Assembly (NCBI GenBank): GCA_032718475.1
Contig: JAUCBJ010006879.1
Location: 1 to 50,698 of the forward strand
From: Nemertoderma westbladi
Lineage: Eukaryota; Animalia; Xenacoelomorpha
Direction: 5' to 3'
DNA length: 50,698 nucleotides
The translations under genes and the position numbers were made by a program. Every line of letters starts with the position of its first letter. The stretch's first letter is position 1. This document shows, piece by piece, positions 62 through 35,900 of the stretch. Below the pieces are notes generated by a model that did no database searches, was not told the origin of the DNA, and saw nothing but the letters and a program-made list of their open reading frames with translations.

Positions 62-1120
62 ATGGCATCAAGAAATATGAATGATATTCATACCCACAAT
101 CATTATGAAGCCCTGTCGGACTCTATAGATGGAACTAGAATAGAAATAGAAGACGAGCGGGTGCTGGTAAATGAAAACATCCAACACGTAGATTCTATGC
201 TTGCAAATCTACCAGCGATCATTGATGAACGGATTCGAAAATCACTACATGGAACTACTGAGTCAAGCAATATTGATGATTCGGTCCTCATAGAACGGGT
301 TTCACAGGAGGTCTACTGCGGTGTCAACATGGATGTATACGCTCTTCGGAACGAACTCGAGAAGTCACTGATTAGACTGGACCAATTCTCCCAACGCATC
401 GATCGTACTGATGCGTCGCTGGACGATCTGGAACAGTATTCGAGACGGAACTGTCTGCTGATTCATGGATTCGCTGTCCAAGATAACCGGGGTGATATGG
501 ATGCGACAGCAAAGGAGATACTCGCTTTTCTACAGAGTAAACTGGATGTTGATTTGTGTCTTGCTGACATCGATCGTTGCCACAATATAAAGCCGCGTAT
601 AAATGGAGATTCGGAACAAAAACTGTCAATCATTAAATTCACTAACTATCGTGCCAAAGCAAAGGTCCTACAGAAACGCAAGAGCCTCAAAGGAACCAAG
701 GTTTTTATTTCGGAAAGCCTCACCAAACGTCGTGCTGCACTACTGAAGGAAGCCAAGGCGAAGGGTGGTATGCGTTCTGCTTGGTCAGTCGACGGCCGAA
801 TCCTGGTATCAACTTCCTCGGGATCAATTCTTACCATCACCTCGAGGAAAGATATTGATCACTGGACCCCGAGTTCCACCACGTCACCTTCCACTGTTGG
901 TAAATCAACGAAGTCTGTGGCGTCGGCTAAATCTGAGAATAAGTCTTCGTCTGGTTCTAAATCGAAGTCGGCTCCTAAGACGCAGTCTACTACAAGGATG
1001 GAAACAAAGTCTGACACTAACCGTAAGTCGACTGCAGCATCTAAATCGAAGAAGAAGATAACTAAAGCTCTGAGTAGTAGCACTATTACGGTGTCTACTT
1101 CAACCCCTGACAGGGAATAA
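62..1120 (+). CDS. LINE ORF1p (coiled coil + RRM/L1-transposase-like domain, basic S/T/K-rich tail)
   Basis: Motifs LDDLEQYSRRNCLLIHG, IDRCH, VFISESLTKRR and AWSVDGRILV are typical of CR1/L2 ORF1 proteins. Confidence 0.9.
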   Translation: MASRNMNDIHTHNHYEALSDSIDGTRIEIEDERVLVNENIQHVDSMLANLPAIIDERIRKSLHGTTESSNIDDSVLIERVSQEVYCGVNMDVYALRNELEKSLIRLDQFSQRIDRTDASLDDLEQYSRRNCLLIHGFAVQDNRGDMDATAKEILAFLQSKLDVDLCLADIDRCHNIKPRINGDSEQKLSIIKFTNYRAKAKVLQKRKSLKGTKVFISESLTKRRAALLKEAKAKGGMRSAWSVDGRILVSTSSGSILTITSRKDIDHWTPSSTTSPSTVGKSTKSVASAKSENKSSSGSKSKSAPKTQSTTRMETKSDTNRKSTAASKSKKKITKALSSSTITVSTSTPDRE

Positions 1121-1193
1121 GTGTAGTTAATACCTGTCTGTATGGTATTAGTAGTGAAAGTTTTAATTTCATAATTATATAGTCTAGTTAATT

Positions 1194-4100
1194 ATGGCTG
1201 TCCCAAGTATCAAAGTACCCAAATTATCTATTAATCATCCAATCAAATATCCCTGTAAGGCTTGTCGCACTGCTGTTAAAACAAACCAATCTGCTATATT
1301 TTGTGAAATATGTGAGTGCTGGGTACATTCAAAGTGTATTAGACCTTCTCTACAACGCGGTGATTATCGTTACTTCCAAAATTCAGTCCTCCCATGGTTT
1401 TGCCCTGAATGCATTGCATCAAATCTACCATTTATGAATATTGTAGATGACGATGAATTTATTTTCACTATAATTGACTACCGAATTCCGGACACCATAG
1501 ATATTTCTGCTTTAAACTCAACTTTTTTCGAACCTTATAATTTAAAAGCCGTTGGAAATAACGACTTCGACACAGAATTCAACCCTGATGTGCATTTATA
1601 TTCTGATTTTTCTGACATCAAAAATTGTACATACTACTTTTCAGATGATTTCAATGAAAAATTCAATAACGAAAATTTATATGATTTGTCTTTACTTCAC
1701 CTAAATTCAAGGAGCCTACCAGGCAACTTTGAGAACATATCTGCATATATAAAACAACAAATATCAATAAAATTTGATGCTATAGGAATTAGTGAGACAT
1801 GGCTAAATGCAGATAGGCATATAATCGACAATTATAATTTGGAAGGATATAATTTTTTTCAAAAAAATAGGGAAACAAAGTTGGGTGGGGGAGTTGGTCT
1901 TTACATTAAAGACACAATATCAGCTATACCACGTGATGACCTTTCCAAGCTTCCGAGTAATGGAAATGGATTGGATTCACTATTTATAGAAATTCCACAA
2001 GAGAAAAGTAAAAATATCTTAATTGGTGTCATTTATCGACCCCCTGATCATTGCATTCAGGACAGCATCACATCACTAAACATCATATTACAAAAAATTA
2101 CAGACGAGGGCAAAATTTGTTACCTTATGGGGGATTATAATATGGACCTCCTTAAGGTAGAACAGCATGCACCAACAAGTGATTTTTTTAATTTAATGAC
2201 TTCTCATTGTTTTCACCCAACCATTTCTAAACCAACCCGTATCACTGACACAACTGCTACCTTAATTGATAACATATTTGTAAACACGCTTCCTACTTCT
2301 CTCGACTCTGGTATTTTTATATGTAATTTAACAGATCACCTACCCATATTTCTCCTCAGTAAATTTAACAGCAAACTTAGTAAGAGAGACATTAAAAAAT
2401 TTGTATTACAGAGGCAATATTCTGAAAAAAACAGTACAATTTTTAATGAGAAACTCTCTAGCTTTGACTGGAATACCATGTTGCTGCTAGCTAGTGACCA
2501 TGACAATGCAAATGATATGTACAATAAATTTGTAGCAATTTACTCAAAAATATATAATGAGTGCTTTCCAATCAAACGAATAAAATTAGCAAATCCCAAA
2601 ACACCATGGATACCGCATAATATATTAAAATGTATCAAGAAAAAAGACAGATTTTACCACGATTACCTCATCCATAAAAATGAAAAAGCCAAAGAAAAAT
2701 TTGTGAAATATCGCGATGCACTGAAGACAATCATTCGAAGGTCTAAAATTAATTATTTTAATAACGCCATGGACAGTAAAACTCGAACAGTGAAACAAAT
2801 ATGGCAATCTATAAATCAACTAATTAACCGCAAAGTCAACAAAACATCTGGGCCGACTTTAATTCATCATGATTCCCGTACTGCCACGGAACCCAAAACG
2901 ATTGCTACCTCCATGAATCAGTATTATTCTCGTGTAGCTTTTAATCTTGACAAAGAGATACCAATAGTCGAAGGTAATCCCATTGATTATTTATCACCAA
3001 TTAAATTTCCCAATTATCATCTAGATGAATTTAATAGTGTTTCATGTTCTGATATTAAAACAATAGTTTTGGATTTTGATTCAAAGGCCAGCCCCGGTCA
3101 TGATGGTATCCGTGGTAAAATTGTCCAGAACTCATTACAGCCGATCCTATTACCTCTAACATATATTATTAATTGCTCTCTCCGCACCGGTATTGTACCA
3201 GACAGTCTGAAAATTGCACGAGTTGTTCCAATTTTTAAATGTGATGACCCCACGATTCCTAAAAACTATAGACCAATATCGGTCTTACCATTCTTCTCTA
3301 AGATTTTCGAAAAAGTTGTTGCTAACCAACTTCTAAAATATGTCACCCACCAGGTAATTATATCGCCATCACAATTTGGGTTTCAGGCAAACATATCAAC
3401 GCAATTAGCATTATTAACACTTGTAGACAAAATTACATCATCCCTTGAAAAGAAACAATCAACATTAGCACTCTCAATAGACCTATCAAAGGCATTTGAC
3501 ACGGTTAACCATGCAATTCTATTAAGCAAAATGGAACACTATGGAATAAAAGGTGTTGCATTGGAATGGTTCCAAAGTTACTTGTTCCAACGTAACAATA
3601 TGTAGCCATTGACAATATTTGTTCCGAACAAAAAATTATCCAGTGCGGGGTGCCCAGGGGTCCATTCTAGGTCCTCTGCTTTTCCTCCTATACTGCAACG
3701 ACATAACCAATGTCTCCAAAATATTTAGTTTTGTTTTATTTGCGGACGACACCAGCATAGTTAACTCTAGTAATAATATTGATAACCTGATTGCCAGTAC
3801 GAACTCTGAAGTACAAAATCTCCAAAAATGGTTTTGTGTCAATCGCCTATCCTTGAATATCAGCAAAACAAACTATATTATCTTCAATACAAGCAACCGG
3901 ATCATCAGTCCATCAACTCCAATTCACATTAATAACATTGACATTACTCGAGTAAAGGTGGCCAAATTCCTTGGTGTACACATAGATGAGCGACTAAACT
4001 GGAAGTACCATCTACACCAAATAAGTATGAAGATTAGTAAAAATATAGGTGTTATAAACAAGGTAAAATCATTTATGACTACAGAATCTTTAGCAGCTCT

Positions 4101-4653
4101 ATACTACGCAATGGTCCATCCATACTTAAGTTACTGTACGGTAGTTTGGGGTAAATCAATAACGGACAATACTGAACAACTAGTACCCAGTTACACCAGA
4201 TCAAAATTTAGACATAGAAGGAGGAGGAGGCGAAAAGTTTATGATGTTGTTTCAATAACAAACATTTTTAAATTGCACAAACACCAACAGAAAATTATTT
4301 CAATAATTCAACATCGCGATCTTAATTTTTCACCACCTACACTTAATCACATTTTTACTCAACAAGTAGCTATCCTCTCCTTTAAGTCTATCCGTAATAT
4401 AACCCCCCATGGGATATTGCCCGACCTATTAACACCCGTTTCAAATGTACACACCCATGAGACAAGATCCTCACAATCTCAAAATGCGTTCCGTCTACGA
4501 AATAGGCTAAAAATCCGAACTCAATCTATTTACGCCCTAGCACCAGTAATTTGGAATGGTCTACCTCTTGCAGTGCGACAGTCTAGCGGATTATTACAAT
4601 TTAAGTACAAATTAAATAATTTCTTAAGGGGTACTACTATAACTACAACGTAA
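1194..4653 (+). CDS. LINE ORF2p (PHD finger, APE endonuclease, reverse transcriptase) with two 1-nt frameshifts near 3595 and 3655
   Basis: [25 protein letters not shown]; APE HLNSRSL, GISETW, GDYN, IDNIF, TDHLP; RT NYRPIS, DLSKAFD, QGSILGP, FADD. Adding one base at each site restores [26 protein letters not shown]. Confidence 0.9.
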
Positions 4654-5715: not shown

Positions 5716-7290
5716 AATCATTTCCCCACCGTATTAATAGTCAAATCGTCTGGGGATCTATAGGAGATCCCGTTAGGAGATTTAGCTGTGCTGAGATCGC
5801 CGAGCCGAGCATTAATGTCCCTCGCAATAATAAATTGTTGCCAATCAGAGCTGCCGAGTATCTTTGCTTGTATCCTCCCCCATACTTTCATTGAGTAGAA
5901 CCGCGAATCGGATGGTGGGCTATAAATACATGCGAACATAATACATGGGTACAAGTGCCACAGTAACCATATGATATCATCTTTTGTTTCTATGGAAACC
6001 CCTTGAAGAATAAATACGATGACGAACCAGTACAGTGACCCCTCCTCGATGGGAATTCTTACAGGGCGGTGGTCTTAGAACAACATAACCAGGTACTGCG
6101 AACCTATAAGAATTTTTAATTTCCTGAATAAAAATGAGGTCATATTGCATAAATAAAACTGACACGTGCTTGAGGGTATTGCTTGAGTGGTATTTCTCGC
6201 CAAACCCATCAGAGTTCTAAGATAATAAGTTTAATTCCACACAGTTACTGCGGCGGCAATCTAAAAAGACGGATTAAATGAATCAATAACGATCCCATCC
6301 CTTACAACGGATCTCGACTCTGGGTCATAGATAATGTTACTTCCAACATTTTCTGGTTTATCAGCCTCTGTTTTAGCAATACCCTGTAATTGTTTGATCT
6401 CGATACGAATACCCAGGTGCATATCAGGTTTGATAAAGACCCTTTTTAACTCTTTGTTATCCTTTAACCTCTTCGATTGTTGGAGTATCTCTCTTCTATC
6501 ACAGGCAGTTGGACCCAACGCTATAAGGAGTGGCCGAGGTCGGTGTGTACCTGGATTCTGCTTTCCCAGGCGGCGGGTAGTGAAGTCTTGTACGGATTCC
6601 AAATCAATCTCCTTGAGAATCGCATTGCACTTATCTCTATTGGACGTCGCGTTAAGCAATGATTCCGATTCGCTGACTCCTAAAAGAATCACATTGCGTG
6701 CTCGCAAAGACCTGTCGATAGACTCGCAAAATCTTTGCTGGTTGGTACAGGTTTTCTTCAGCACAGCGTTTTCCTGCTCGAGAATGTCGATGCGCTCCTC
6801 CAACACCGTAACCCATTGGTTCATAGCAGCATCAACACTAGAAGCTATAATATCTTTAAGTTGTGAGATTGATAGAGTACCGATAGATGCACTATCAGTG
6901 TTTGGTTGTTGATGTATGGGGAAGGATGTAGGAATACTGGTTGACCTTGGACCAAGGAAAAGTTGTTGGGAAGATGTGCCTACAAGTCCTGTAAGGTGCG
7001 GTTGTGATGGAGTAAAATATGGTCTGGTACCGGTAACAGTACCGGTGTTGCGTGCCGACACCACCGCCATCCAGAGTTGGACTTCCTGCGGTATTGGTTC
7101 CTGGAACAGTGACAGCACAGGAATTACAATTGCCACCATTACGCAGCTTCTGTTGAAATCCGCCACAGGATTTGCATTTGCCCAAACCAAATACGAAATC
7201 AATGTAAAAATTACTTTAAAAATATTACTAAAAACAGCAGAATTCAGAAGTGGTATTACAGTAATCTGAACCGATTTGGCTTCCATTCCT
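5716..7290 (-). mobile_element. Degenerate LINE: ORF1 plus the start of ORF2 (APE), 3'-truncated
   Basis: ORF1-like RARNVILLGVSE, RRLGK..RPRPL, VFIKPD. An N-terminal CxxC..CxxC (MGKCKSC...CNSC, from 7185) lies in another frame. APE fragments DLIFIQE, HRGGVTVLV, CIYSPPSDS, RDINAR. No RT present. Confidence 0.82.
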
Positions 7291-7369
7291 ATTTCTATAT
7301 ATTTAGTAGGTCATGATTGCACCAGTAAAAAATTGGTGTTAAAAAATGGTTTAATTATTACACAAATCC

Positions 7370-7926: not shown

Positions 7927-8035
7927 ACAGCCTTTGCAGAGAACGCCGAAGGAGGACAGCTGTATGCAGGCTGTGATCGTTATAAGAGATGCAACAGTTT
8001 CGGTGGGGAACTGATCTCAAACTGTCAATCTATAG
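7927..8035 (+). CDS. Exon A of Ly6/uPAR-like chimeric gene (TAFAENAEGGQLYAGCDRYKRCNSFGGELISNCQSI)
   Basis: ttacag acceptor and gtaag donor; open frame with an xGC-x5-C three-finger cysteine pattern; ends in phase 1. Upstream exons were not found in the window. Confidence 0.75.
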
Positions 8036-8280
8036 GTAAGAGGAAGGTAATAGGTTGTACACACAAACCAAATTTTATATTAAAATGTAACTTTTTAATG
8101 AAATGTAAGAGGTCTCAGGCAAAATTTTGTAGGGGGGGGGGGGGGGGGGGGGTGCCCTGCGCATGGTGATGCTGCGACGCCACTGCCTCTAACTATAAAC
8201 CGTAATACTTCTCAACGAAAAATGTATTTTTGTAATCGCGAATTATGAGTCCGCCTAGTTTTATATTAATAATTATTTAG

Positions 8281-8472
8281 GAGAAACATTCCCACTCGCC
8301 TGTGGACCAACTTCAATAGCGGATACTGCACTTCTTATGACCAAGTTGGCGACCATTGACGAGATAGTAACCTCCACCACAGAAAACAAAATTGGTCTTC
8401 TTAAGACCAGACTCGTTCCTTTTACTAAACAAACACTTACACTGGCAGACAACAAGGACGTTTACAATGCAG
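8281..8472 (+). CDS. Exon B of Ly6/uPAR-like chimeric gene (helical repeat 1)
   Basis: tttag acceptor, gtaag donor, 192 nt, phase 1-1; GETFPLACGPTSIADTALLMTKLATIDEIVTSTTENKIGLLKTRL...KDVYNA. Confidence 0.82.
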
Positions 8473-9262
8473 GTAAGTAAGAAATTGCATGTCTCTATAT
8501 AATAAGCCAGTAAAGGTGAAGTTCAGCACACCAAACAAAGAGAAATAATATATGATAATGTTAGCTTTCTGAATATAATATAGTCCATCTTTAGGCTATC
8601 AAATAATATAACATAGAATTACAATAGTAGTCTAGGCTATATTTTATAATACTAACTAACAATTTACATTTAAATTTCCCGCCAAAGTGAAATATATAGA
8701 AATAATATTATACGATATAGTAGTGAATAAGAAAATAAATTTTTTTAACTGGTCCAGGAATGGTAAATTAACAGAAATTGTAATAAATACTTATGGAAAA
8801 TGAATTAAAACGGGCCGTGTGAAGTAAATATGTAACGTAACTGTTAAAGAATTTCCGCTGAAGTGCATTATTATTAATCACATGCTATATTTCATAAAGT
8901 TGACAATCGCAAGGAATCCCATAATAACATAGGAACGTTGTAGTAAGTGGTTGTTTGACCATCTTTATTTATATTAACTTTACCTCAACTTTCTCAAAAT
9001 GTTATTTTCACATAAATTATTTCTCAAACTTGTGGGGCAGCAAAATATATATAATATACTCCACCTCGCTATAATTTAGGCAGTACTATACCAAGGTGCA
9101 CCAATTTGTCGTCCATATTCTACTGATATTAAATTTAAATATATATTTGATTGGTTACGATTTAATTCAGCACCAAAAAATCACCTTATCCATCAAATAA
9201 ATTAACCTTTCCACCAAATATTTCTTATTTAGCTCTAATTAGGTAGAACTAACCTTCGGCAA

Positions 9263-9363
9263 TCGAAAATCTAGACAAAAGGTGTCTTAACCTTAAAACC
9301 TAACTGGAAAACTGGTTTCCAGTTAGGTTTAGGGTTGAAGACACTTTTTGTCTAGAGTTTCGA
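9263..9363. repeat. ~100-bp near-perfect palindrome (MITE-like), intronic
   Basis: TCGAAAATCTAGACAAAAGGTGTCTTAACCTTAAAACCTAACTGGAAA is mirrored across a ~5-nt spacer, within a larger region of inverted ACCAAA/TTTGGT repeats (~9170-9460). Confidence 0.75.
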
Positions 9364-9616
9364 CAGGGCGACACTACCCAGGGCCATAGACAGACCTTCT
9401 ATCATTTGGTGGTAAAGTGAGCCGTTTTTGGTGGAAAGTGAGTTTATTTGGTGCGAAAAGGTATCTAATTAGGTGTGCAAATAATTTGTTGCGTATTTAA
9501 TTTAAATTATTACATAGAGAGTTTCCTCGGTTTGAGGTGTAAAGTTTTGAATAAACATACTTTATATCACTGTTGTTGGTATTTCTATTTCAACCGACAA
9601 CCTTATTTATGTTTAG

Positions 9617-9853
9617 GCGTTTCAATTTCTCTTCTCCTTAATAATGGATGGAAGACGCAAGCAGAATTAGCGGCTTTGGACTTATCAGAGATTACGACAG
9701 CATTGAAAGACAACTTGAAACGAACCAAAGGTTATGGGAGTTCCTACATGGATAGTCTGACGAGTGATGTACCACAACTACTGAGCATCGCGTGTGATGC
9801 ACAGGGCTATGCCTGTACTACAGACACCATGCGAGGGGCACTTGTGGCAGGCG
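9617..9853 (+). CDS. Exon C of Ly6/uPAR-like chimeric gene (helical repeat 2)
   Basis: tttag acceptor, gtaag donor, 237 nt, phase 1-1; GVSISLLLNNGWKTQAELAALDLSEITTALKDNL...LLSIACDAQGYACTTDTMRGALVAG. Confidence 0.85.
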
Positions 9854-10685
9854 GTAAGTATATTAATAATTTAATCTAATCTCATGCATATCTACTACAG
9901 CAAGAAGTACAGCAAACTCTAATAAGATACGATAACTGTAATCTTATTAAGTTTTTGATTATGACTTGGAGTATCAAATTTTATTCGAAAATGGAAAGTT
10001 TAATTAAAAGTAAAGGTAATACTCCTCACAGAAAGTGTGATTCTCGCGGAGAATTCCGCTCCCATATCCCATCATTGGTTAACATTGGACCTCTGCGGAT
10101 AGTGATGTTCGTTCTCATCTTTAAGATAATTAAATTATACCTCTTAGAACTTAAAATTTGTAGAATTTTATCAATGTCTCATGCTGTATATATTTAAAAT
10201 TTAAAAATACTTGAATTACAATGGTTTTCCTTCAATATATCTAAAACTCGTTTATTACTTTGGTACCTTTTCAGTCTACATTTCTTACTATATCCTTTAT
10301 TAAAAATTGTAAATTCCAACATTTTATTTATTCGGTGTTCCAGTTTAGTACCATTGGCTTTGTTTTATGTGCTGCTCGGCTTAATTAATCGGCCCAGGTA
10401 ATCATTCAGTACTATCCCAAATCAAATTCAACATGTCAATCAATAATTATTTGAACTGTTACAGCTTAATTAATAATTAAATTTAAAAAACAAATTATTA
10501 TCTATTGCCTCAATTATAGACACAATATATTTTTTGTATAGTTTCAAAATAATATTTTTTTAATTATATGTAAACAGATATATATAGTGGTATAAAAGTT
10601 GCAGTTATAATGATAGCGTTAATTAATTAATAATATCATTATCATTATTTATTATATATTAATTATTAATTTTGGTTTATCACAG

Positions 10686-10777
10686 GATGGGCAACTGAAC
10701 ATGAACTAAACTATCTGGGGTCTTCCGAACAGAAACCACTCTTGATATCTGAAGTTAAAAAACTTACTAAGACAGCT
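10686..10777 (+). CDS. Exon D of Ly6/uPAR-like chimeric gene (helical repeat 3)
   Basis: cacag acceptor, gttag donor, 92 nt, phase 1-0; GWATEHELNYLGSSEQKPLLISEVKKLTKTA. Confidence 0.8.
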
Positions 10778-11183
10778 GTTAGTTAATTACAATGATGTGA
10801 TAATGACCAAAATCTAAAAAATAGTTTAAAATTTTAATATATTTAAAAAAATTCACAATAAACATAAAAAATAGTATAGCGGATTTAACGAATATTTTAT
10901 ATACTTTTAACTTTTTAAAATATACGTTGAAATAATAAATAATTGTATATTCAGCATGTGAAATGTTATTATTTATTATAACTAATAAGTTATGTGTTAC
11001 TATTGAATTATGAATTGAATATTGTAACATCTGTTATTTAGAAAATAACAAAGTTCTTTATTTAATCCCAGTCCACGAGGTCGGTATACTCACTCATACC
11101 ACGATCCTTTATCACGACCTGCTGATGATACGGTCTGATGATACAGACTTCCTGGTTTACCATTCACCAAGCCCGAATTATTT

Positions 11184-11482
11184 CATTGACAGTATCATCC
11201 CTGCAGTATCCTCTAGTCCCAAACCACTTCACCATTTGGATCTCGACCCCCTAAGACAGTGAGTGATCTGTAGCCCCAATAATGTGCCCTTACCCATCCC
11301 ATAACCTCCCCATATTCTTTGCCCTACTTTGTAACCATTTCACCTCTTAGATTCTTTAGGAATCATTTTGCTTCTCTTCCAGCAACACCATCGAGTACAC
11401 CATGGGAGTAAAGGAAGCCCTAAGTTCTTCACAGGCAGTTCTATACTAAAGTGATTTGATTTCTCGGCATACTGCGGCCAAT
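11184..11482 (-). mobile_element. 3' fragment of a CRE/R2-superfamily (restriction-like endonuclease) retrotransposon, intronic
   Basis: Minus-strand translation with frameshifts gives YRTACEELRASFTPMV, DGVAGREAK, EVMGWVRG and CLRGSRSKW, matching the C-terminus of CRE-like elements. Confidence 0.65.
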
Positions 11483-11586
11483 GTATGATTGGGCGGGAGT
11501 TCAATCTATAATTTAGATTAGATAGTTTGAGAATATGAATTTTGTTTTGTATTATAAAGTTAATGCTAATTTACAATCGTTTTTAG

Positions 11587-11830
11587 GTCGACAGCAACAC
11601 TGCTGAAGCCACACTCATTCAAATCGCTTCAGTTGCACTTTTCCTCAATGAATTGGGTATCGCCGCCCCCCAACAACTGTCCACGATGACCAATGACGAA
11701 CAGCGAGATCTACTGAAGACCACGTTGTTGAGTAGACTGACCCTGTCCACTGAGGCTCGAACAGCCCTTGAGGGTGAGGCTACTCCTGACCCCACATACC
11801 TTCTTGCCTTGGCATGTCAGATACGTCCAG
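11587..11830 (+). CDS. Exon E of Ly6/uPAR-like chimeric gene (helical repeat 4)
   Basis: tttag acceptor, gtttg donor, 244 nt, phase 0-1; VDSNTAEATLIQIASVALFLNELGIAAPQQLSTMTNDEQRDLLKTTL...LLALACQIRP. Confidence 0.85.
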
Positions 11831-12876
11831 GTTTGTTAAACTCAAGGCTATTCCTGCAATAGATATTTATTAGACCTTCATCTTATAATAAGAAACATAT
11901 TATTAATATATGTGTATTACCATGCATGACGTACTTCCCCTCGGCACTGTTTTATTTTTTGTACCAGTCTGAACTGATCAGTATGTGTATTGATACCATC
12001 TATTTGTCATGGTGAGCAATCCAACTACTCACTGGAATATCCAACTGCCTTCGTAACAATATAATCCGCATCTGATTGTTTGGTTGGTTGGAAGGTTTGA
12101 TAAACATTGTGAGCACAAATTGTGTTGACAGATTTAGAAATTTTGTTAAAAAAAAGTTATGGCATAATATGTTATGAAAACATATTAAAATAAAATCGCC
12201 CCAAACCCTAAACCTCAAACCCACCCCAAACCAATCCACATGACTGTGGACTGTAGACTAATTGAATTACTGTGGACAGTGTCGTTTCTTACTGTGACGC
12301 GATCCGGTTGGCTCAGAATCCCGTCCACTGAAATGTTCCTGTGTAGTTTCCCTACGCGCTAGCGTGGCGGTTCCTTTTTGGGGATATTTGGCCGAAGCCC
12401 CGGTGAATAACAGTTTACTGGGTTTAGCTAGTTCTTAATAACTGATACTGACTGCACACACCTGGGCTGTGCTGCTGCGCTAGTGGTAAGAAACGATGCA
12501 CATACTGCACATATAGCCAACTGAGCTGTCCACACAGGGTACAGCTATTATGTGTATAACCTACCTACTGGTTATAGGTAAAATCAACCAATAATGAGGC
12601 CTTAGAGTTGATACATACAGAGCCCCCTCCCATTTGTCCTCCTGTGAATCATGCCACTTGTCAGTTTCACTGGACTCTATTGGCCCTTGGGGTTTGCTGT
12701 AAGTGATGAGCTGGTAAGCTCACTTACAGGCCTGATATTTCTTATGCCCAATATTAGTAAATTGCCCACCCCCCCCCCCCCCCCCCCCCATTTGTTATCA
12801 GAGCGAATTGAATTGAATCTGCTAACGATCATACTTGGTTTTTAATATTTCTTATTATATTTTTTCGCATTTTCAG

Positions 12877-13061
12877 ATATATTTCGATTTGGAGCAGCTA
12901 CCAACTGTCAACTTAGCTGCTGTTCATCAAACAACTGTAATATGCTGAATAATTTTCGAGGTCTAACTATTCCTCCACCAAGTGATATTGCAAGCAAATT
13001 CCAACCAACACTACCCATCATTTATATACTAATCAATTTGATCGTTATTAATTCGCAATAA
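12877..13061 (+). CDS. Terminal exon F of Ly6/uPAR-like chimeric gene (CCxxxxCN motif + putative GPI signal)
   Basis: tttcag acceptor, phase 1; DIFRFGAATNCQLSCCSSNNCNMLNNFRGLTIPPPSDIASKFQPTLPIIYILINLIVINSQ*. Hydrophobic C-terminus with no cytoplasmic tail. Confidence 0.82.
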
Positions 13062-14031: not shown

Positions 14032-17017
14032 ATGGCCCATGAAGATGCCTATTGAGATGCTGACGTTCCAATGGATGAAATTCAAACTAGTACCCATGAT
14101 GGTCTCAATAAAGACATCCTGGAAAATATGTGACGAAACATTTTGAGTTACAGAGTGGCAGAGTATTCGGGATAGGGATGCATCATTTAATAAAAGCCGA
14201 AATGATTCAGTTAGCATTAGCAGATGGTGGGCTGGGGTTGCATGTGGTGTGTTGGTAGTGTTGTTAGTGGGTGCGGCAATAGTAACTTCCTTTTATTTAC
14301 TTCAACTCAAATTTACTACTACTACTAGGATCGGCATGCTGCATTGCAGCTGCATTTTTAAGAATGCTGTGCCGGCTTATCGACAAAATTGCACCGCCAC
14401 AACTCCCTATCACCCATGAAATTTGCTAGATCATCCGCATCTTCAAGGCCAGTATCCTTTAAGATGCGTCTCAAGAAAGTCATGGGCTGTCCACCATGCT
14501 TATTCACTCCATGAGGCTGCCAAAGTACTAGATTATGCACTGGCTGGTCCTCACGGCGAAAGCAATGTCCTGCAAAGCAGAGGCGATTTTGTTCTAGTGT
14601 CAAGCTTGGGGGAACCAATGAGACACCTCCAATGTTATAAAGTGTCTCGTTGGAGATGTGTGCATTGTACTTGACACACTGAACCCGGCCTAGCATTCTC
14701 GTGAATGTGCCATCAAGAGATTTGGTGTCCTCAGCAGTTAGAGCCCAGCATGGACTCCCATAGAGGAGTACTGGTACTACAGCTGCTCTAAATAATCGGA
14801 CCTTAAGTTTCCGATTAATTCTCGGTGACTTCCAAATCCTGGAAAGCCTATTCAAGGATGCCCATGCCTTTCCCTTACGTATTCGAAGGTCCTCACCTGA
14901 CTTCCGGATCCATGATCCCAGGAACAGAAGTCATCCACATGCTCAAGCATACCATCTTTTGAGCGCATGCTCATCCGATCAGAGACTTGCTGAGGACTTT
15001 CAAAGTTAACTGTCAAAATTGTGGTCTTTCTGGAGTTAATAAAAAGACCAACACTAGAAGCAGCATGTTCCAATGAGCTGAGGAGCCATTGGGCTCCCTC
15101 TAGTGATTCTGAGAGTACTCCTAAGTCATCAGCAAAGTCTAGATCAGTTAGGTACTTGGCAGGATTTCCTCTACTTCTGAAGCCAGTAAGTGGAGTTATC
15201 ATGACCCCATCATCATTATGATGATCTAAGGACATGCGTAGAACATAGTCAACAACAATTATGAACAAGAATGGTGCAAGTTTGTCTCCCTGGAGGACGC
15301 CCCATAACACTTCAAATGGTTCTGTGTCACCGTCAACAGTAGACACAAATGTTGTCGAACCATCGTATACTGATCTGATTAGTGCAATAATTTCATCAGG
15401 AATCCCATATAATGAAAGTATGCTGAAAATACATGAGCGAGAGACTGAATCAAAGGCCTTGAAGAAGTCAACAAAGATAACTGCCAGATGCCTGTCTTTC
15501 TTTTTTGATAACTCTTCAATTATCCTGCTAAGTGCCAAAATGGGCTCCATGGTCCCACGACCTTTACGGAACCCATTCTGATTTCCATGGGGCAGTCTCT
15601 CAATGGGAACCCTGATGCGATTTAATAGAATTCTATTGTATAGCTTTGCAGGAATCGAGATCAATGAGATTCCCCGAAAAGAACCACAGAGTGTTAGGTT
15701 GCCCTTCTTGGGAACTGGTACCAACTTATTTGTTTTCATTTCTTGTGGAACTCTTGTTGTTCGGTGCATGTCTACTATGATGGGATAGATGAGCTTTAAA
15801 CACTCGGGTATTTTAAAGACCTCAGGGGGAACACCATCTACTCCACTGGCACGATTCGTCTTAATGCTCTTTGCAGCAGCCTTCACTTCTGCAAAGGAAA
15901 TATCACCAATGGGAATATCTGGGAGTACAGACTCAGACACTTTTACTTCTGTAAAGTTACCAGGCAATACCCTGTCATTATTGAGGAGCTATTCAAAGTG
16001 GGCCTTCCAACCATTGAGGCGATCGGCTGGTGATTCAGCCTTAACCTTGGTGGTTGGTTGGCTTTTGCGACCAGCAAGCAAGTTGATCGATCTCCATGCC
16101 TGCAATGATTGGCTGCTGTCGTCAGCATCATTGATGGCATCAATCAACCTGTTGGTTTATTAGTTCCTGTAAATTAACAGAGTACTGCCTGTTCAGGGAC
16201 CTAGATGCAGCCTTAACTGCATTCTTGGCCGCTGTAGTCTGTTTGAGTCGGGGCTCTTTCTGCGCCTTTTTACAGTCGAGATACGAAACAAGATACAAGA
16301 CGAGATTCGTGACTTAAATGATATCCTTTTTAGATCTGAATTTAAAATTTCCAAAATAGAGTATATTATGTTGTTACAGATTCAACCAGAATTAATTTGT
16401 TCAAATTCCCAAGTGGATACAACTACATATGTTAGTTATATTTATGGACTAAATGGGGTCGTTAGATGCGTCCCTGGTGGTCCGTGGATAGTAATACAGA
16501 GGCGGGTAGATGGATCACTAGACTTCTATCGCAAATGGACCAGTTATACTATGGGCTTTGGTAATCTGGATAGTGAGTTTTTTCTAGGTTTGGATGACAT
16601 CCACAAACTTACCAAAGCTGGAGTCAAACTGAGGATCAATCTTTGGTACAACAAAGGAGAACACAAGTATGCCAAAGATAACAAATTCACTATTGGCGAT
16701 TATAATAGTAATTACAGGCTACAGATATCTGGGCAAGGCGGTACAGCTGGTGATTCGATACTTTAAGGAAGTCCCGGAGGGGGTTGGTACATCAATGGAC
16801 AACCGTTCTCCACTAAGGACAGCGACAACGATGCTTCTTCCAGAAACTGCACCATTGCATTGAACGCAACGGGGCTTGGTGGTATTGGGACTGCAGCTTG
16901 TCCAATCTAAATGGCATCTACGGCAGGGAGGGTGATGAGGGACCTAATTTGTACACATTCACTGATCCTCCGATTGTCATACCGATGGATAAAATAGAAA
17001 TGAAGATTAGAGTTTAG
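14032..17017 (+). pseudogene. Intronless type II transmembrane fibrinogen-related (FReD, FIBCD1-like architecture) pseudogene interrupted by an RTE LINE
   Basis: ACCATGG start; TM segment RWWAGVACGVLVVLLVGAAIVTSFYLLQLKF; after the LINE, an in-frame coiled coil TVEIRNKIQDEIRDLNDIL, then FReD motifs WIVIQRRVDGSLDFYRKW, GFGNLDSEFFLGLDDIH, FSTKDSDND, GAWWYWDCSLSNLNG, EMKIR*. Premature stops and frameshifts present. Confidence 0.85.
14317..16268 (-). mobile_element. 5'-truncated RTE-clade LINE with (TAG)n tail and TTTAC target-site duplication
   Basis: RT motifs FRGISL, FVDFFKAFDSV, GVLQGD.LAPFLF, DLDFADD; C-terminal LLYGS..WALT, RLCFAGHCFR; frameshift near 14920. TTTAC occurs at 14312-14316 and 16269-16273. 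Confidence 0.9.
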
Positions 17018-24189: not shown

Positions 24190-25875
24190 TCATGATGGGG
24201 GAGCTCAGTTTCGCTTCTTTCTGATGCTATGTTTTCAGCCGAAGCCAATGATGATATTGTAATCATCCCACCCATAGAACCGTTAACTGATGATAAAAGA
24301 GTTGATGATATAATAATATAGGGATATATATATATATATAGGGATACTAATATATCCCTAACTATGCCAAAAGAAATAGCTGAAACTGTAGAAATACATC
24401 GTGATATGGATTTGGTTGAGAATGACATTAGTACTGAGGAGGCTACTGATCGACAGCATTGGCAGAAGCAGGACATTACAGGTTGCAGTGTCGAGAAACT
24501 GAATTACCTTACTAATGATTACCATGAACTCGTGGAAACGACTCCTGCTGATATATTTGCCAAAATGTTCACTGAAGAAATGTTTCAGAATTTGGTAGAT
24601 GAAACCATTCGATATTCCCGTGAACACAATGAACACCAGTTCTCCATAACAGTCTCTGAAATGAGAAGTTTTATAGGGCTGTTGTACCACACAGGATATA
24701 ATAATCGGCCACATGAGGATCACTATTGGTCTATATCACTTGATCTACAGCATGCAATATTTCCAAAGATTTTTGGGAGGCCCTGGGAAAGATATTGAGA
24801 ATGATAAACTTTCTAAGATACAGCCTATATATAATTGGCTCATTTCACAATTCAATCAGTTTGAAATAAGGGATGAAAATCTGTCCATAGATGAATCGAT
24901 GGTTCCATACTTTGGTCACCATAGTTTCAAGTAGTTTATCAGAGGTAAACCAATTAGATTGGGTTTCAAGGTCTGGTTTATTTGTTCCTCAAATGGCTAT
25001 CCTTATAATTGTCGGATATATACAGGGAAGAATGCCACATATCGTAGTGATACTACTACTAGGATCGGCATGCTGCATTGCAACTGCATTTTTAATAATG
25101 CTGTGCCGGAGTACATATCGTAGTGATAGATTGGTCATTCTGGATCTCACCATGTCTACTTCGATAACCTGTTAACTTCTGTTGCTCTCCTCTCTGAGCT
25201 AAAGAGGGATGGTTTCCATGCCACTGGTACAATTAGTGAGAACCGAACTGGAAAGTGTCCTCTCCAAGCCTCAATAGACTTGAAGAAGACAAGCAGGGCT
25301 ACATTCGACTACCGATCCAATGGTGAGGTAGTTGTTGTTCGCTGGAATGACAACAGTGTTGTTTCTGTAGCCTCCAAATGTGAGCAGGTATTCCCAACTG
25401 TAAAGACAACTCGAATTGTCAACAAAGTGCTGGGCACCCAGGTTGATCAACCTTCCCTTATAGCATCATATAACCGGGGCATGGGTGGAGTTGACCTCAT
25501 GGATAGACTCCTAGGTTCGTATTGTCCCACAATAAGCATGAAGAAGTGGTGGTGGCCGCTCTTCATTAATGCGATCAATGTTGCCATGGTAGCCGCCTGG
25601 CGTCCAAGTACCCCTTATCTCACCTGGAATTATTATCTCAAGTTGTAAACAGCCTTATTACCATGATGCCCACGAAATGCCCTTCTGGACTGTCATTGGT
25701 AACTCCTGCAGCTGTAAAACGATCAAAGACAGTCGGGGCTCTCCATTCTTTAGTTACAACAACTCAGTTGCGCTGTGGGGTTTGTCAGAAGAACTGCTGG
25801 TGGAGGATGTGCTGTGTCTGCCTGAAGAGGATGCACCTTGATGTTTGCTTTGATAGATTCCACCATATTTCTTGA
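24190..25875 (+). pseudogene. piggyBac (PGBD2/3-like) transposase, disrupted
   Basis: LSIDESMVPYFGHHSFK*FIRGKPIRLGFKVW, HVYFDN, VRWNDNSVVSVAS, YNRGMGGVDLMD, KKWWWPLF and a C-terminal Cys-rich CGVC..CCVC..H..CF..FH; stops, frameshifts and insertions present. Confidence 0.9.
25053..25112 (-). mobile_element. 60-bp extreme 3' end of the RTE family seen at 14317-16268, with a 16-bp TSD
   Basis: Matches ~14319-14374; flanked by ACATATCGTAGTGATA at 25037-25052 and 25113-25128. Confidence 0.9.
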
Positions 25876-28263: not shown

Positions 28264-29934
28264 GTTGCTGTAAGGGACTTTCGTCATGTGTCTTGAGAAT
28301 ATTGAAAGTTCTTATCCTATTCCGAGTGTTCCACTAGCTGAATATCGACCTCCCCTCCCACTAGACCTCTGGTTTCGTTCAGGCAACGTGCCGTCGGATA
28401 GTACCAGTCGAGGATATGTAGTAGACCCCAGAGGTAGTATCATGAATAATATAGATTGGTTTGACTTACAATGTATATTGTTATGATATTCACTAGTCCT
28501 ATTCTAATATCTCACCATTATTAGTGTCATTGCAAGTACCTTGCGAATAACGTATACACCAATAAACTAATATAAATATATATATAGGCAATGAAAAAGA
28601 AGGTGATATTTGATGCATAATTACACTCAAGAAACTCCACATCCAATATCGACATGTTAAATACACCAAATATTACCAATAACCACTAAACATCTGGCCC
28701 TCTAAGATTAGCACTTCTAATATTAACATCTCAATGTGCAGTTTCAATGCAGAAGGCCAATGATAGTAGTAATAGTATTATTAATTATTTATATTATTTC
28801 ACAAAATAATTTAGAATTTTTATTCATGTTTTAAAAAACCATAGGTTACCTACATCCACAAAGCACGACACACATGGGTGGGCAACTGGGCATGTAGGGG
28901 AAATAGAGGAGGGAATAAAAATGGAATGAGCACAGAGAGTATCAATTACATCAAGTGGTTTTTAAGGATAATCCCCATAGTGCATTACCGGTGCAAACTT
29001 CAATTCTCACACACAGTCAGTGATCTGTATCACCGGTTGCACTCTGAAATTCACTGACTTGCCCAAAAAGTCAACCAACCACAACCGTCAAAACCATGAA
29101 AAGTCAACCAACCACAAAGGTTAAGGGTGAATCTCCAGCTGAACACCTCAATGTTTGGAAGGCCCAATTTGAGAAGCGTCTAAACTGCTTTCATAGACAG
29201 TGCTGACATAGATGGCGTGATCCCTGAGGGGTTTGGAGCTCATTTAACCCATTATTGTGGATATGTATAGGACAAAGAGAGTCCTTCAAGAAATTAAAAC
29301 ATTTTGGCCTCTGTCCCAAATAAAAGCAATGTAGCATCCTATGGATCTTTTCATGGAAATTCGTTAAACTCGATTGCTGCAAATCTATACAATATAATTA
29401 TATTAAGCACACAACTACCTGTTGGGTGGTTCACAGTCAGCAGTGTACCGCTGGCCCTGCGGTACACCACGCGGTGTACCGTTCCATTGAATGTGAACGG
29501 GCCTTTCAATATATATATACCTAACCTTACATACCTACAAGTTACTCTGATCTAGTTAAGCTAAAGCCTTTCCAAAGAAAATAATGACTAGAGATTTCAC
29601 TAATTATTACAACAAACAATGTTGTATGTAAATGTACATTATTAATGATGATTAATGTATGGGGTTGATAGTAAAACTATTTGATGGGGGTGAATCCAGT
29701 TTTATCCGTAACATCCTGGGATGATTTGTAATGCAAAATTCCAGTTCATTTTGCGGTATTTGCACGAATCTTGTCACGAATGCTGAGAGGGTTGAGTGGG
29801 GTAGTTTGGAAATTGGAGAGCTTAAGAGAGTGGGATAGAAGAAATACAAGTGTGAGAAGTGCATGAGTTGTTGGTCTAAGACAACTGGCTAAGCACCATG
29901 ATGGGCCAGGTTTTGTTTGGTATTTCTATATACA

Positions 29935-32900
29935 CTAGAAAGCCTGTGGCCCTTCGGGCCACAGCTTTCTAGTGCACGTGCAGATGATATATGAATATGT
30001 GTGGGAGATTTGAGAACTGCATACGGAATAGACACCATCATTAAATAAAACACCACCCCCATAAGATATAACTGTCAAGTTTCAACTTTAGGCAGATTGT
30101 AAATAACAAAATTTCCAGAAAATGATCACTTTCAGATCCACCCTCTACCTGCGGACTGGTGAAATGCAGACGGCGCTGCAGTTTGGTAAAGATGGGGTTT
30201 ATGGTGAAGTAAAATGCCTGCCTTTCAAGTTTCAGCTTAAACAGATTGTAAATAACAAAATTGGTGTAGATGTTCACATTCAGACATTTCACCCTCTAGC
30301 GGTAGATTGAAGAACTGTAGACGACTCTGGGACTCCGTAAAGATACAGAATATGCTGTAGTAGATTCCTGCCAAGTTCCAGCTCAATAGAATTAAAAAGA
30401 ACCAAATGGGATGAGGTGTTCACTATCAGATATGTCGCCCTCTAGCGGCAGATGGGGGGACTGTATACAACGCTGTGACTCCGTAAAGGTACAGCCTATG
30501 CTGTAGTAGAGGCCTACCAAGTTTCAGTCTAAACCGTTAGTAAATAACAAAGTTGTAGAAGATGTTAACTTTCAGACATTTCACCCTCTAGCGGTAGACT
30601 GGGGAAGTGAATAGGATTCTGCAACCCCGTAAAGATACAGCCTATGATGTAGTAGATACCAACCAAGTTTCAGCTCAAAATGATTAAAAAGAACCAAATG
30701 GGATGAGGTTTTCACTATCAGACAATTCGCCCTCTAGCGGCTGACTGTGGAACTGTAGACGACTCTACTACTCCGCAAAGATATAGCCTATGCTATAGTA
30801 GATGCCTACCAAGTTTCAGTCTAAAAGGATTGTAAATAACAAAGTTGGAGAAGATGTTAACTTTCATACATTTCACCCTCTAGCGGCAGACGCGGGTAAT
30901 GTAGACAACTCTGCGCGACTCAGTAAAGATATAGCCTATGCTGTAGTAGATGCCTACCAAGTTCAGTCTAAATGGATTATAAATAACAAAGTTGGAGAAG
31001 ATGTTAACTTTCAGACATTTCGCCCTCTAGCGGTAGACTGGGGAATTGTAGACGACTCTGCGACTCAGTAAAGATACAGCCTATGCTGTAGTAGATGCCT
31101 ACCAAGTTTCAGTCTAAACGGATTGTAAATAACAAAGTTGGAGAAGATGTTAACTCTCAGACATTTAGCCCTCTAACGGTAGACTGGGGAACTGTGGACA
31201 ACTCAGTGACTCCGGAAATATACAGCCTATGCTGCAGTATATAGCTACCAAGTTTCAGCTCAAAAGCATTAAAAACAACCCAATGAGATCAGGTTTTCAC
31301 TATCGGACAATTCGCCCTCTAGCGGCAGATGGGGAAACTTCAGACGGCTCTGAGTATTACGTTGCAACGAGTTAGGGCAAGACCTATCTAACGAGCTATA
31401 GTAAGCGAGATTTCATCGAGATTAGATGTATAATATTAGATAAAATAATAATACAGTAAGTATAGGCCTACAGAAATAATTATTTTACTTTTAATATTCA
31501 TAACAGTAAAACAAAAATGTTATAAACCTCTCCTTCCATGCAGCCAATGATTGAGAAAGCAGAATTACACTTGAGCAGTTCGCAACAGACAACCCAAACC
31601 CACCCCAATCAACACTACAGCCTGGCTTGCTCCTTATCTGTGCCCAGCTAGCTGCGATTTCAATAATTACCTTAACGTTGCTATGATACAGAAAAAAATC
31701 CTTCCCTATATTCACTACAGCACTAAGAATAGGCCAATTCGATCGTGCTTGGCGAATATGACATATTTATACACTATTTGGTTTTTAATCAATAAATAAT
31801 CATACATATTTATATTAAACACTCGAATAAAATAAAAACTTTGTGAGAATGGGACACGGCGAATCTACTCATGTTAATTTTATACCAGATGGGATAAATG
31901 TTAGCCCTCTAAATAATTAATTACCGATAGAAGAACCGAAATAATTCGATAAATTTCGCCCGAAAATCACGAAAATCGCCCTCTAGCGGCAGACGGGTGA
32001 ACTTCAGACGACTCTGAGTATTACGTTGCAACGAGTTAGAGCGAGACCTTTCTAACGAGCTATAGCAAGCGAGATTTCATCGAGATGGGTTCGATTGTAT
32101 AGCTGATGACAAACAGACAGACAGACAGACAATGCATATTTATATATATTACTAGAAAGCCTGTGGCCCTTCGGGCCACAGCTTTCTAGTGCACGTGCAG
32201 ATGATATATGAATATGTGTGGGAGATTTGAGAACTGCATACGGAACAGACACCATCATTAAATAAAACACCACCCCCATAAGAGATAACTGTCAAGTTTC
32301 AACTTTAGGCAGATTGTAAATAACAAAATTTCCAGAAAATGATCACTTTCAGATCCACCCTCTACCTGCGGACTGGTGAAATGCAGACGGCGCTGCAGTT
32401 TGGTAAAGATGGGGTTTATGGTGAAGTAAAATGCCTGCCTTTCAAGTTTCAGCTTAAACAGATTGTAAATAACAAAATTGGTGTAGATGTTCACATTCAG
32501 ACATTTCACCCTCTAGCGGTAGACTGAAGAACTGTAGACGACTCTGGGACTCCGTAAAGATACAGAATATGCTGTAGTAGATTCCTGCCAAGTTCCAGCT
32601 CAATAGGATTAAAAAGAACCAAATGGGATGAGGTGTTCACTATCAGATATGTCGCCCTCTAGCGGCAGATGGGGGGACTGTATACAACTCTGTGACTCCG
32701 TAAAGGTACAGCCTATGCTGTAGTAGATGCCTACCAAGTTTCAGTCTAAACCGTTAGTAAATAACAAAGTTGGAGAAGATGTTAACTTTCAGACATTTCA
32801 CCCTCTAGCGGTAGACTGGGGAAGTGAATAGGATTCTGCAAACCCGTAAAGATACAGCCTATGATGTAGTAGATACCAACCAAGTTTCAGCTCAAAATGA

Positions 32901-35900
32901 TTAAAAAGAACCAAATGGGATGAGGTATTCACTATCAGAAAATTCGCCCTCTAGCGGCTGACTGTGGAACTGTAGACGACTCTACTACTCCGCAAAGATA
33001 TAGCCTATGCTATAGTAGATGCCTACCAAGTTTCAGTCTAAAAGGATTGTAAATAAGAAAGTTGGAGGAGATGTTAACTTTTATACATTTCGCCATCTAG
33101 CGGCAGACGCGGGTAATGTAGACAACTCTGCGCGACTCAGTAAAGATATAGCCTATGCTGTAGTAGATGCCTACCAAGTTCAGTCTAGATGGATTATAAA
33201 TAACAAAGTTGGAGAAGATGTTAACTTTCAGACATTTCGCCCTCTAGCGGTAGACTGGGGAATTGTAGACGACTCTGCCACTCAGTAAAGATACAGCCTA
33301 TGCTGCAGTATATACCTACCAAGTTTCAGCTCAAAAGCATTAAAAACAACCCAATGAGATCAGGTTTTCACTATCGGACAATTCGCCCTCTAGCGGCAGA
33401 TGGGGAAACTTCAGACGGCTCTGAGTATTACGTTGCAACGAGTTAGGGCAAGACCTATCTAACGAGCTATAGTAAGCGAGATTTCATCGAGATTAGATGT
33501 ATAATATTAGATAAAATAATAATACAGTAAGTATAGGCCTACAGAAATAATTATTTTACTTTTAATATTCATAACAGTAAAACAAAAATGTTATAAACCT
33601 CTCCTTCCATGCAGCCAATGATTGAGAAAGCAGAATTACACTTGAGCAGTTCGCAACAGACAACCCAAACCCACCCCAATCAACACTACAGCCTGGCTTG
33701 CTCCTTATCTGTGCCCAGCTAGCTGCGATTTCAATAATTACCTTAACGTTGCTATGATACAGAAAAAAATCCTTCCCTTTATTCACTACAGCACTAAGAA
33801 TAGGCCAATTCGATCGTGCTTGGCGAATATGACATATTTATACACTATTTGGTTTTTAATCAATAAATAATCATACATATTTATATTAAACACTCGAATA
33901 AAATAAAAACTTTGTGAGAATGGGACACGGCGAATCTACTCATGTTAATTTTATACCAGATGGGATAAATGTTAGCCCTCTAAATAATTAATTACCGATA
34001 GAAGAACCGAAATAATTCGATAAATTTCGCCCGAAAATCACGAAAATCGCCCTCTAGCGGCAGACGGGTGAACTTCAGACGACTCTGAGTATTACGTTGC
34101 AACGAGTTAGAGCGAGACCTTTCTAACGAGCTATAGCAAGCGAGATTTCATCGAGATGGGTTCGATTGTATAGCTGATGACAAACAGACAGACAGACAGA
34201 CAATGCATATTTATATATATTAGATTACTAGAAAGCCTGTGGCCCTTCGGGCCACAGCTTTCTAGTGCACGTGCAGATGATATATGAATATGTGTGGGAG
34301 ATTTGAGAACTGCATACGGAACAGACACCATCATTAAATAAAACACCACCCCCATAAGAGATAACTGTCAAGTTTCAACTTTAGGCAGATTGTAAATAAC
34401 AAAATTTCCAGAAAATGATCACTTTCAGATCCACCCTCTACCTGCGGACTGGTGAAATGCAGACGGCGCTGCAGTTTGGTAAAGATGGGGTTTATGGTGA
34501 AGTAAAATGCCTGCCTTTCAAGTTTCAGCTTAAACAGATTGTAAATAACAAAATTGGTGTAGATGTTCACATTCAGACATTTCACCCTCTAGCGGTAGAC
34601 TGAAGAACTGTAGACAACTCTGGGACTCCGTAAAGATACACAATATGATGTAGTAGATTCCTGCCAAGTTCCAGCTCAATAGGATTAAAAAGAACCAAAT
34701 GGGATGAGGTGTTCACTATCAGATATGTCGCCCTCTAGCGGCAGATGGGGGGACTGTATACAACTCTGTGACTCCGTAAAGGTACAGCCTATGCTGTAGT
34801 AGATGCCTACCAAGTTTCAGTCTAAACCGTTAGTAAATAACAAAGTTGGAGAAGATGTTAACTTTCAGACATTTCACCCTCTAGCGGTAGACTGGGGAAG
34901 TGAATAGGATTCTGCAAACCCGTAAAGATACAGCCTATGATGTAGTAGATACCAACCAAGTTTCAGCTCAAAATGATTAAAAAGAACCAAATGGGATGAG
35001 GTATTCACTATCAGAAAATTCGCCCTCTAGCGGCTGACTGTGGAACTGTAGACGACTCTACTACTCCGCAAAGATATAGCCTATGCTATAGTAGATGCCT
35101 ACCAAGTTTCAGTCTAAAAGGATTGTAAATAATAAAGTTGGAGGAGATGTTAACTTTCATACATTTCGCCCTCTAGCGGCAGACGCGGGTAATGTAGACA
35201 ACTCTGCGCGACTCAGTAAAGATATAGCCTATGCTGTAGTAGATGCCTACCAAGTTCAGTCTAGATGGATTATAAATAACAAAGTTGGAGAAGATGTTAA
35301 CTTTCAGACATTTCGCCCTCTAGCGGTAGACTGGGGAATTGTAGACGACTCTGCCACTCAGTAAAGATACAGCCTATGCTGCAGTATATAGCTACCAAGT
35401 TTCAGCTCAAAAGCATTAAAAACAACCCAATGAGATCAGGTTTTCACTATCGGACAATTCACCCTCTAGCGGCAGATGGGGAAACTTCAGACGGCTCTGA
35501 GTATTACGTTGCAACGAGTTAGGGCAAGACCTATCTAACGAGCTATAGTAAGTGAGATTTCATCGAGATTAGATGTATAATATTAGATAAAATAATAATA
35601 CAGTAAGTATAGGCCTACAGAAATAATTATTTTACTTTTAATATTCATAACAGTAAAACAAAAATGTTATAAACCTCTCCTTCCATGCAGCCAATGATTG
35701 AGAAAGCAGAATTACACTTGAGCAGTTCGCAACAGACAACCCAAACCCACCCCAATCAACACTACAGCCTGGCTTGCTCCTTATCTGTGCCCAGCTAGCT
35801 GCGATTTCAATAATTACCTTAACGTTGCTATGATACAGAAAAAAATCCTTCCCTATATTCACTACAGCACTAAGAATAGGCCAATTCGATCGTGCTTGGC

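Follow-up and report, generated by a model that had tools for sequence, protein, structure and literature searches.

Ly6/uPAR (LU) domains are usually regarded as compact building blocks that occur in repeats or in end-to-end fusions. It is known that an LU domain comprises 60-90 residues and ten cysteines, bonded 1-5, 2-3, 4-6, 7-8 and 9-10, that its intron sits at the loop-2 tip, and that LYPD6, ACVR2/BMPR2 and TGFBR2 have additional disulfides in loop 3, while the ectodomains of TGF-beta receptors are LU domains as well, some of them with such extra loop-3 disulfides (PMC6600238). The C-terminal motif of the domain is CCxxxxCN (PMC4839075). Paramonov et al. (2026) surveyed 387 invertebrate genomes for LU architectures and described LU in combination with Kunitz, C1q, fibrinogen, immunoglobulin, MAM, thioredoxin, permease and seven-transmembrane domains (PMC13719153). 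In that survey only LU matches of at least 60 residues were taken, and the sole chordate was the lancelet, with no tunicate; therefore, it likely misses a split LU domain (PMC13719153). Here we describe a gene of Nemertoderma westbladi (assembly GCA_032718475.1, contig JAUCBJ010006879.1, positions 7927-13061, plus strand), in which two LU-like, cysteine-rich ends are separated by an insert of 255 residues. The window below means the whole stretch of DNA that was analysed, i.e., the 50,698 nucleotides of this contig.

The locus is the 3' part of a real gene, and so a gene fragment. Its six exons (A to F), the phases of the introns between them (1,1,1,0,1) and the single stop-free frame, all proposed in the initial annotation, were confirmed on the window sequence. 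The spliced frame has 352 codons and ends with TAA at 13059-13061; all five introns are GT-AG, with an AG acceptor also present before exon A, the ten splice dinucleotides are intact, and there are no stops or frameshifts in the 1,059 coding bases. The GC content is mostly higher in exons (0.34-0.53) than in introns (0.26-0.41). Exon A (7927-8035, phase 0 in and 1 out) encodes 36 residues with the pattern YAGC-x5-C-x10-C, and the terminal exon F (12877-13061, phase 1 in) encodes 60 residues with Cys302, the CCxxxxCN motif as part of C-x3-CC-x4-CN, a spacer and a hydrophobic tail before the stop; both cysteine patterns are present as had been claimed. Between them lie exon B (8281-8472, phase 1-1), exon C (9617-9853, phase 1-1), exon D (10686-10777, phase 1-0) and exon E (11587-11830, phase 0-1), forming a block with phase 1 at both ends and without its own start or stop, for which A and F are the nearest phase-compatible exons. 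The frame contains 11 cysteines, three in exon A (residues 16, 22 and 33), four in exons B-E (44, 160, 167 and 287) and four in exon F (302, 306, 307 and 312), and it contains no N-glycosylation sequon. On the plus strand, candidate AATAAA sites are present at 13057, where the hexamer overlaps the stop, and at 13267, 13278 and 13299. A first exon, a signal-peptide exon or an N-terminal LU exon, which would carry the LxCxxC motif, was not found in the window, including the 7.9 kb upstream of exon A, which agrees with the earlier expectation that the signal peptide and the first cysteines lie outside it.

By profile comparison, the insert is a tandem pair of an unnamed, predicted all-helical module of ~115 residues, each copy consisting of two ~55-residue repeats. 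It had been described as one helical module of ~255 residues unrelated to LU, and while its length and its unrelatedness to LU stand, the single module does not, since there are two ~115-residue copies, and these have many relatives. Self-comparison of exons B-E gave four weak repeats of ~55 residues that assemble into two units, Cys44-Cys160 and Cys167-Cys287. A profile of the four exons, searched against 1.84 billion protein representatives, had 15 matches at E ≤ 0.001 (best 4e-9), 14 of which share one module, and a further search matched 281 proteins among 7,997 scored candidates. From these a module profile of 115 positions was built with 268 module copies, none from the window; since the set was found via window-derived queries it leans to the window, while the initial E-values already account for library size. 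Against this profile, module 1 (8301-9795, plus strand; residues 52-146, profile positions 5-101) scored 14.4 bits and module 2 (9814-11817, plus strand; residues 171-264, profile positions 2-97) scored 53.2 bits in the whole frame. Scored alone they reached 18.4 and 57.1 bits, respectively, and in neither case did any of 1000 shuffles score equal or higher. Module 1 is strongly diverged.

The same profile informs the splicing. Exon B carries Cys44 and the first repeat of module 1, exon C its second repeat, Cys160, a linker of six residues, Cys167 and the start of module 2, exon D the first repeat of module 2, and exon E the second repeat with Cys287. The profile, which holds no window sequence, runs collinearly through the B/C, C/D and D/E junctions, and these three splices are therefore supported by homology, including the weak GTTAGT donor of exon D. 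The order BCDE was the best of all 24 exon orders (69.2 vs 58.8 bits), and when in-frame sites within 45 bases of a junction were counted, the annotated sites were the best of three options at B/C, the only one at C/D and the best of three at D/E. In a simple exon scan run over the entire window (26 candidate rows), exons A, B and E were recovered with the same ends and exon C with the identical donor and an acceptor further upstream, while exons D (weak donor) and F (terminal) were absent from it. Two side observations can be added here. The end of exon A (7996-8028) resembles the start of exon F (12885-12911), with FG...NCQ in both and nine identical bases, due to chance, hairpin symmetry or an insertion-site duplication. 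The B/C intron holds a palindromic element of 101 bases (9263-9363, 87% self-complementary), which is likely a small non-autonomous transposon.

Neither Pfam nor NCBIfam has a model for the module. The AlphaFold2 model of a bacterial-type relative (P0002), and thus of a relative and not of the window protein, consists of two nine-helix modules with a predicted local distance difference test (pLDDT) score of 89.6. A fold search of PDB and BFVD with this model gave nothing at E ≤ 0.001, and its comparison with 48,161 chains gave a best Z of 4.2 (root-mean-square deviation 3.5, 78 aligned), which is not proof of a new fold. Exon E alone had no relative among 380 candidates, exon C had none in metagenome contigs, no module relatives were present in viral contigs, and an Atlas look-up with exon E or P0002 gave no usable match. 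Several candidates were removed from the family: P0015, an unrelated repeat without a match; L010, L011 and an Erwinia phage protein in L014, none of which scored against the module profile; and five of nine genome loci, which matched only other portions of P0028.

In other proteins the module has a regular arrangement. Exactly two copies are present in 129 of the 135 bacterial-type proteins, joined by a linker of 2-14 residues, and the pair stands at the protein end in 133 of them. The partner domains in bacteria include trypsin, matrixin, lipoxygenase, beta-lactamase-like, LGFP and Hint domains, and because bacteria fuse the module to either end of such unrelated catalytic domains, it may be a non-catalytic binding or targeting domain. 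Among the 120 of 281 matches listed, the named carriers are Nitrospira, Bryobacteraceae, Nocardia, Lentzea and Angustibacter; Hassallia is a further one, as are three Acidobacteriota and a gammaproteobacterium (the other four of the nine genome loci). A module pair is also present in a signal-peptide-like protein on plasmid c of Rhizobium tropici CIAT 899 (L012, 3851-5503), and another forms a stand-alone protein on a Nocardia plasmid (L013, 3956-4708). These two plasmids are named, culturable sources of the module.

The window copies resemble those of the bacterial tandem proteins (P0001-P0004, P0028) in their significant profile match, the tandem pair, the short linker and two repeats per copy. 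They differ in that the bacterial copies are terminal, have no cysteines at their ends and keep the Arg-Asn motifs, whereas the window copies are internal, cysteine-bracketed, intron-split and without either Arg-Asn motif. Both window copies have a cysteine at each module end, an arrangement shown by none of the 272 bacterial-type copies and by none of the 9 animal-like copies; the label "animal-like" was assigned from the CUB domain and composition. The Arg-Asn motif is missing at all four places in the window copies, while it is present at the two internal repeats in 267 and 272 of the 272 bacterial-type copies; therefore, the original ligand has probably been lost. The window modules are homologous to the bacterial module but probably work unlike it.

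Insertion of the module into another fold has a parallel in an animal-like CUB-domain protein of 3,297 residues (P0019), which has three single copies at residues 2071-2190, 2457-2576 and 2885-3000 that interrupt a host repeat, apparently at differing points. Around the first module, the module-free host repeat aligns as two pieces (10.1 + 13.2 bits), and when this module is removed it aligns as one piece of 25.8 bits; the other two copies have the same pattern, only weaker. As the module interrupts a host domain in P0019, it can be inserted into another fold. This giant protein of CUB/carboxypeptidase-regulatory-like type (with P0005 and P0025) and P0007 thus share with the window gene a module inside a host domain, but their copies are single, lie in another host domain, lack the end cysteines and mostly keep Arg-Asn.

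Regarding history, Trp at module column 12 is found in window module 2 and in all nine animal-like copies, and in none of the 272 bacterial-type copies; window module 1 has Leu there. In a tree of 33 rows (26 of the 272 bacterial-type copies, picked for diversity, five of the nine animal-like copies and the two window copies), the bacterial copies stand on one side at 94/95, unstarred and with an unsettled bootstrap, and there are long branches, those of the window copies among them. Both results fit a shared animal lineage of the module, and the tree gives no donor or direction of transfer. Introns are placed differently in the two window copies, and the copy boundary lies inside exon C, so the pair is likely older than its introns, as would be expected of an intronless arrival resembling the bacterial pairs. 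The pair may have come in as one 1-1 block, landing in a phase-1 intron within the region for finger 3 of the three-finger fold, with the inner introns gained later.

The Ly6/uPAR reading of the ends comes from motifs only, namely C-x3-CC-x4-CN, the tail resembling a glycosylphosphatidylinositol (GPI) signal, and the cysteine spacing. The CCxxxxCN motif lies at 12918-12941 on the plus strand (residues 306-313), with its Asn outside any glycosylation sequon, and the longer pattern of exon F is the sole one of its kind in the window. By chance, 0.2 CC-x4-CN per window would be expected over six frames, and eight are present, of which seven are one minus-strand motif repeated in a tandem array at 30-45 kb and one is that of exon F; only there is it accompanied by the extra upstream cysteine, and C-x2-4-CC-x4-CN occurred in 0 of 100 windows simulated with an order-3 Markov model. 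Outside the insert there are seven cysteines with a spacing compatible with LU cysteines 6, 7, an extra pair, 8, 9 and 10. Exon A would then supply LU cysteines 6 and 7 and one extra loop-3 cysteine and would correspond to the second half of finger 2, and we consider it likely that exons A and F are the halves of one split LU domain.

GPI signals have small residues at omega and omega+2, a polar spacer, an uncharged hydrophobic C-terminus and no cytoplasmic tail. In a rule-of-thumb scan, the C-terminus fits this pattern (12984-13058, plus strand): omega would be Asp328, followed by 24 residues with a 20-residue uncharged end and a peak hydropathy of 3.1 over 11 residues. The probable GPI tail behind a CCxxxxCN end that had been suggested earlier is thus in agreement with the present scan.

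A number of results weigh against this view of the ends. Only seven candidate LU cysteines are visible, cysteines 1-5 not being within the window. In the Pfam comparison, including the LU clan (uPAR_Ly6_toxin), exons A (36 residues) and F (60 residues) alone matched no families, although segments of such length may be lost to the filters, and among solved structures there was no match for exon A, exon F or an A+F profile. CCxxxxCN occurs in 0 of 143 insert relatives examined. The intron before exon A is of phase 0 and lies 15 residues ahead of the putative sixth cysteine, and the usual intron at the loop-2 tip would fit the start of exon A only if finger 2 were long (PMC6600238). The A/B and E/F junctions have 15 and 10 in-frame alternatives that all score alike and, as they lie outside the modules, they rest on splice signals and phase alone; the tail is also short, with about 14 strongly hydrophobic residues. 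Beyond this, an A+F profile matched no LU protein, a profile of the reverse order (F+A) had five candidates and no relative, no homologue with the full split layout was found in the searches made, and exon F folded alone gave a meaningless model (pLDDT 48). In the full frame, 283 residues lie between Cys22 and Cys306, so the protein is not a compact LU domain of 60-90 residues; only the product of an A-to-F skip would be compact. The protein is for these purposes filed as LU-like and not as a proven LU member.

Our preferred explanation, which we hold with modest confidence, is that a GPI-anchored, split three-finger pedestal presents two modules, each stapled by a disulfide, which project from finger 3 and would serve in binding or adhesion. 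It starts from the open frame, the two module copies and the three homology-crossed junctions. A signal peptide encoded upstream of the window would direct the protein into the secretory pathway, and a GPI anchor would be attached near Asp328. The three-finger core would be built from upstream exons together with A and F, with predicted bonds Cys22-Cys306 (LU 7-8) and Cys307-Cys312 (LU 9-10); Cys16 would pair with a cysteine encoded upstream of the window (LU 4-6), and Cys33-Cys302 would additionally clamp finger 3 at its foot. Each module would be closed by a staple of its own, Cys44-Cys160 in module 1 and Cys167-Cys287 in module 2, so that the three-finger core would act as a membrane-proximal pedestal. 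The stapled modules would project from finger 3 towards a ligand that differs from the bacterial one, and as such the animal modules may be a repurposed interaction surface or spacer. A bolder version, which we regard as speculative and rather doubtful, would make finger 3 a plug-in display site: a bacterial tandem binding module would have been horizontally acquired and placed in an LU gene, within a phase-1 intron, then stapled by new disulfides and exposed at the cell surface, where exon skipping might switch it on or off.

The ends may also not be one LU domain at all, with F a lone LU-like remnant or another small disulfide knot and A a different cysteine-rich domain, the whole being a mosaic on a GPI anchor. 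Neither exon has LU profile or structural support, the N-terminal half lies outside the window, and the three-cysteine pattern of exon A is weak by itself, which speaks for such a mosaic, yet chance would rarely produce CCxxxxCN together with an extra upstream cysteine, and Cys306 would need an LU 7-8 partner, for which exon A is the nearest source as the insert cysteines would already pair symmetrically at the module ends; we consider the mosaic unlikely. A point missed by the initial annotation is that exon A can join exon F in frame. The direct splice is stop-free and gives 97 residues with seven cysteines, in which a 13-residue loop separates Cys33 and Cys302, and six further exon-skip products that we examined are all in frame. 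It could thus be argued that A joined to F is the main mRNA of a compact LU gene, with B-E an optional cassette of a long isoform and the helical display switchable. However, phase-1 introns give in-frame skipping automatically, partial skips would cut the modules and leave odd cysteines, and the open frames with clear homology in all four insert exons suggest their regular use, so we find this reading improbable.

It is also conceivable that the locus became a pseudogene recently, or that it is a relic whose 5' part was severed by upstream retroelements, as there is no first exon in the 7.9 kb upstream, most of which is retroelement-derived, and module 1 is very diverged. Against such decay, the coding bases are undisrupted, the splice dinucleotides and the exon A acceptor are intact and the cysteine pairs are complete, and we give it a slim chance. 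Finally, the tail could be a transmembrane helix, which would make this a type I membrane protein with more exons, either TGF-beta-receptor-like or of another kind, and the LU nature of TGF-beta receptor ectodomains, including the extra loop-3 disulfides of some (PMC6600238), would suit this; but the stop comes three residues past the tail, exon F has no strong donor, the AATAAA sites follow, and no kinase-like frame was found downstream of exon F in the window. The order of LU, transmembrane helix and kinase seen in TGF-beta receptors is thus not found here, and we regard this last alternative as hardly credible.

Returning to the split, GPI-anchored protein that we prefer, its closest counterparts are GPI-anchored LU proteins such as CD59, LYNX1, LYPD6 and Drosophila Quiver/Sleepless, with which it shares CCxxxxCN with a non-glycosylated Asn and a GPI-like signal in the last exon. 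With LU domains of the CD59/LYPD6 type it also shares GC-x5-C at the place of cysteines 6 and 7 and, likely, an extra loop-3 disulfide as in LYPD6 (PMC6600238, PMC4839075). Domains of the CD59 type, however, are 60-90 contiguous residues on two exons, which follow a signal exon, whereas here 255 residues and four more exons stand between putative cysteines 7 and 8, and five introns come after the one ahead of exon A. The invertebrate proteins of Paramonov et al. are similar in combining LU with an unrelated domain, but in the main text of that paper domains are added, and none is called an insert, split or interruption (PMC13719153). No split LU protein was found in the literature searched, nor any paper containing the module motif (subscription papers were mostly outside its coverage), which agrees with the statement of the initial annotation that no protein of this architecture is known to have been described. 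What appears to be new is, therefore, the helical-module insert between LU-like ends, together with the insert family, which would be newly recognised here.

The surroundings of the gene are rich in repeats. Upstream, a long interspersed nuclear element (LINE) at 62-4653 (plus strand) has a frame like open reading frame 1 (ORF1) and an ORF2 with Pfam matches to a PHD finger, endonuclease and reverse transcriptase (RT), broken in RT near 3605. A second LINE-like element at 5718-7310 (minus strand) has two frames without a Pfam match at E 0.001, which we take to resemble LINE ORF1 and endonuclease remnants. Downstream are a LINE remnant that carries RT (14358-15988, minus strand) and, at a distance of 3 kb from the gene, an apparently partial frame with a fibrinogen C-terminal domain (16173-16766, plus strand; E 5e-27); these are followed by a piggyBac-like DDE transposase that is broken (24322-25875, plus strand). 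A higher-order tandem array occupies 29921-44900, with units of ~2.1 kb that are 96-98% identical to each other and each contain 7-8 copies of a 146-base repeat. At 45839-50401 (plus strand) there is a Gypsy-like gag-pol with a single frame of 1,520 codons and RT, RNase H and integrase matches. The LINE, piggyBac-like and Gypsy elements, the fibrinogen-domain frame and the spliceosomal introns are in keeping with an animal host.

The insert reveals an all-helical domain without a family name, which is common to many bacteria and some animal-like proteins. If the two-domain insert in finger 3 is true, the three-finger fold would tolerate large natural insertions, and profile surveys that require 60 contiguous residues would miss a class of such proteins. 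The gene also raises a testable case in which a bacterial accessory domain may have been recruited to the animal cell surface.

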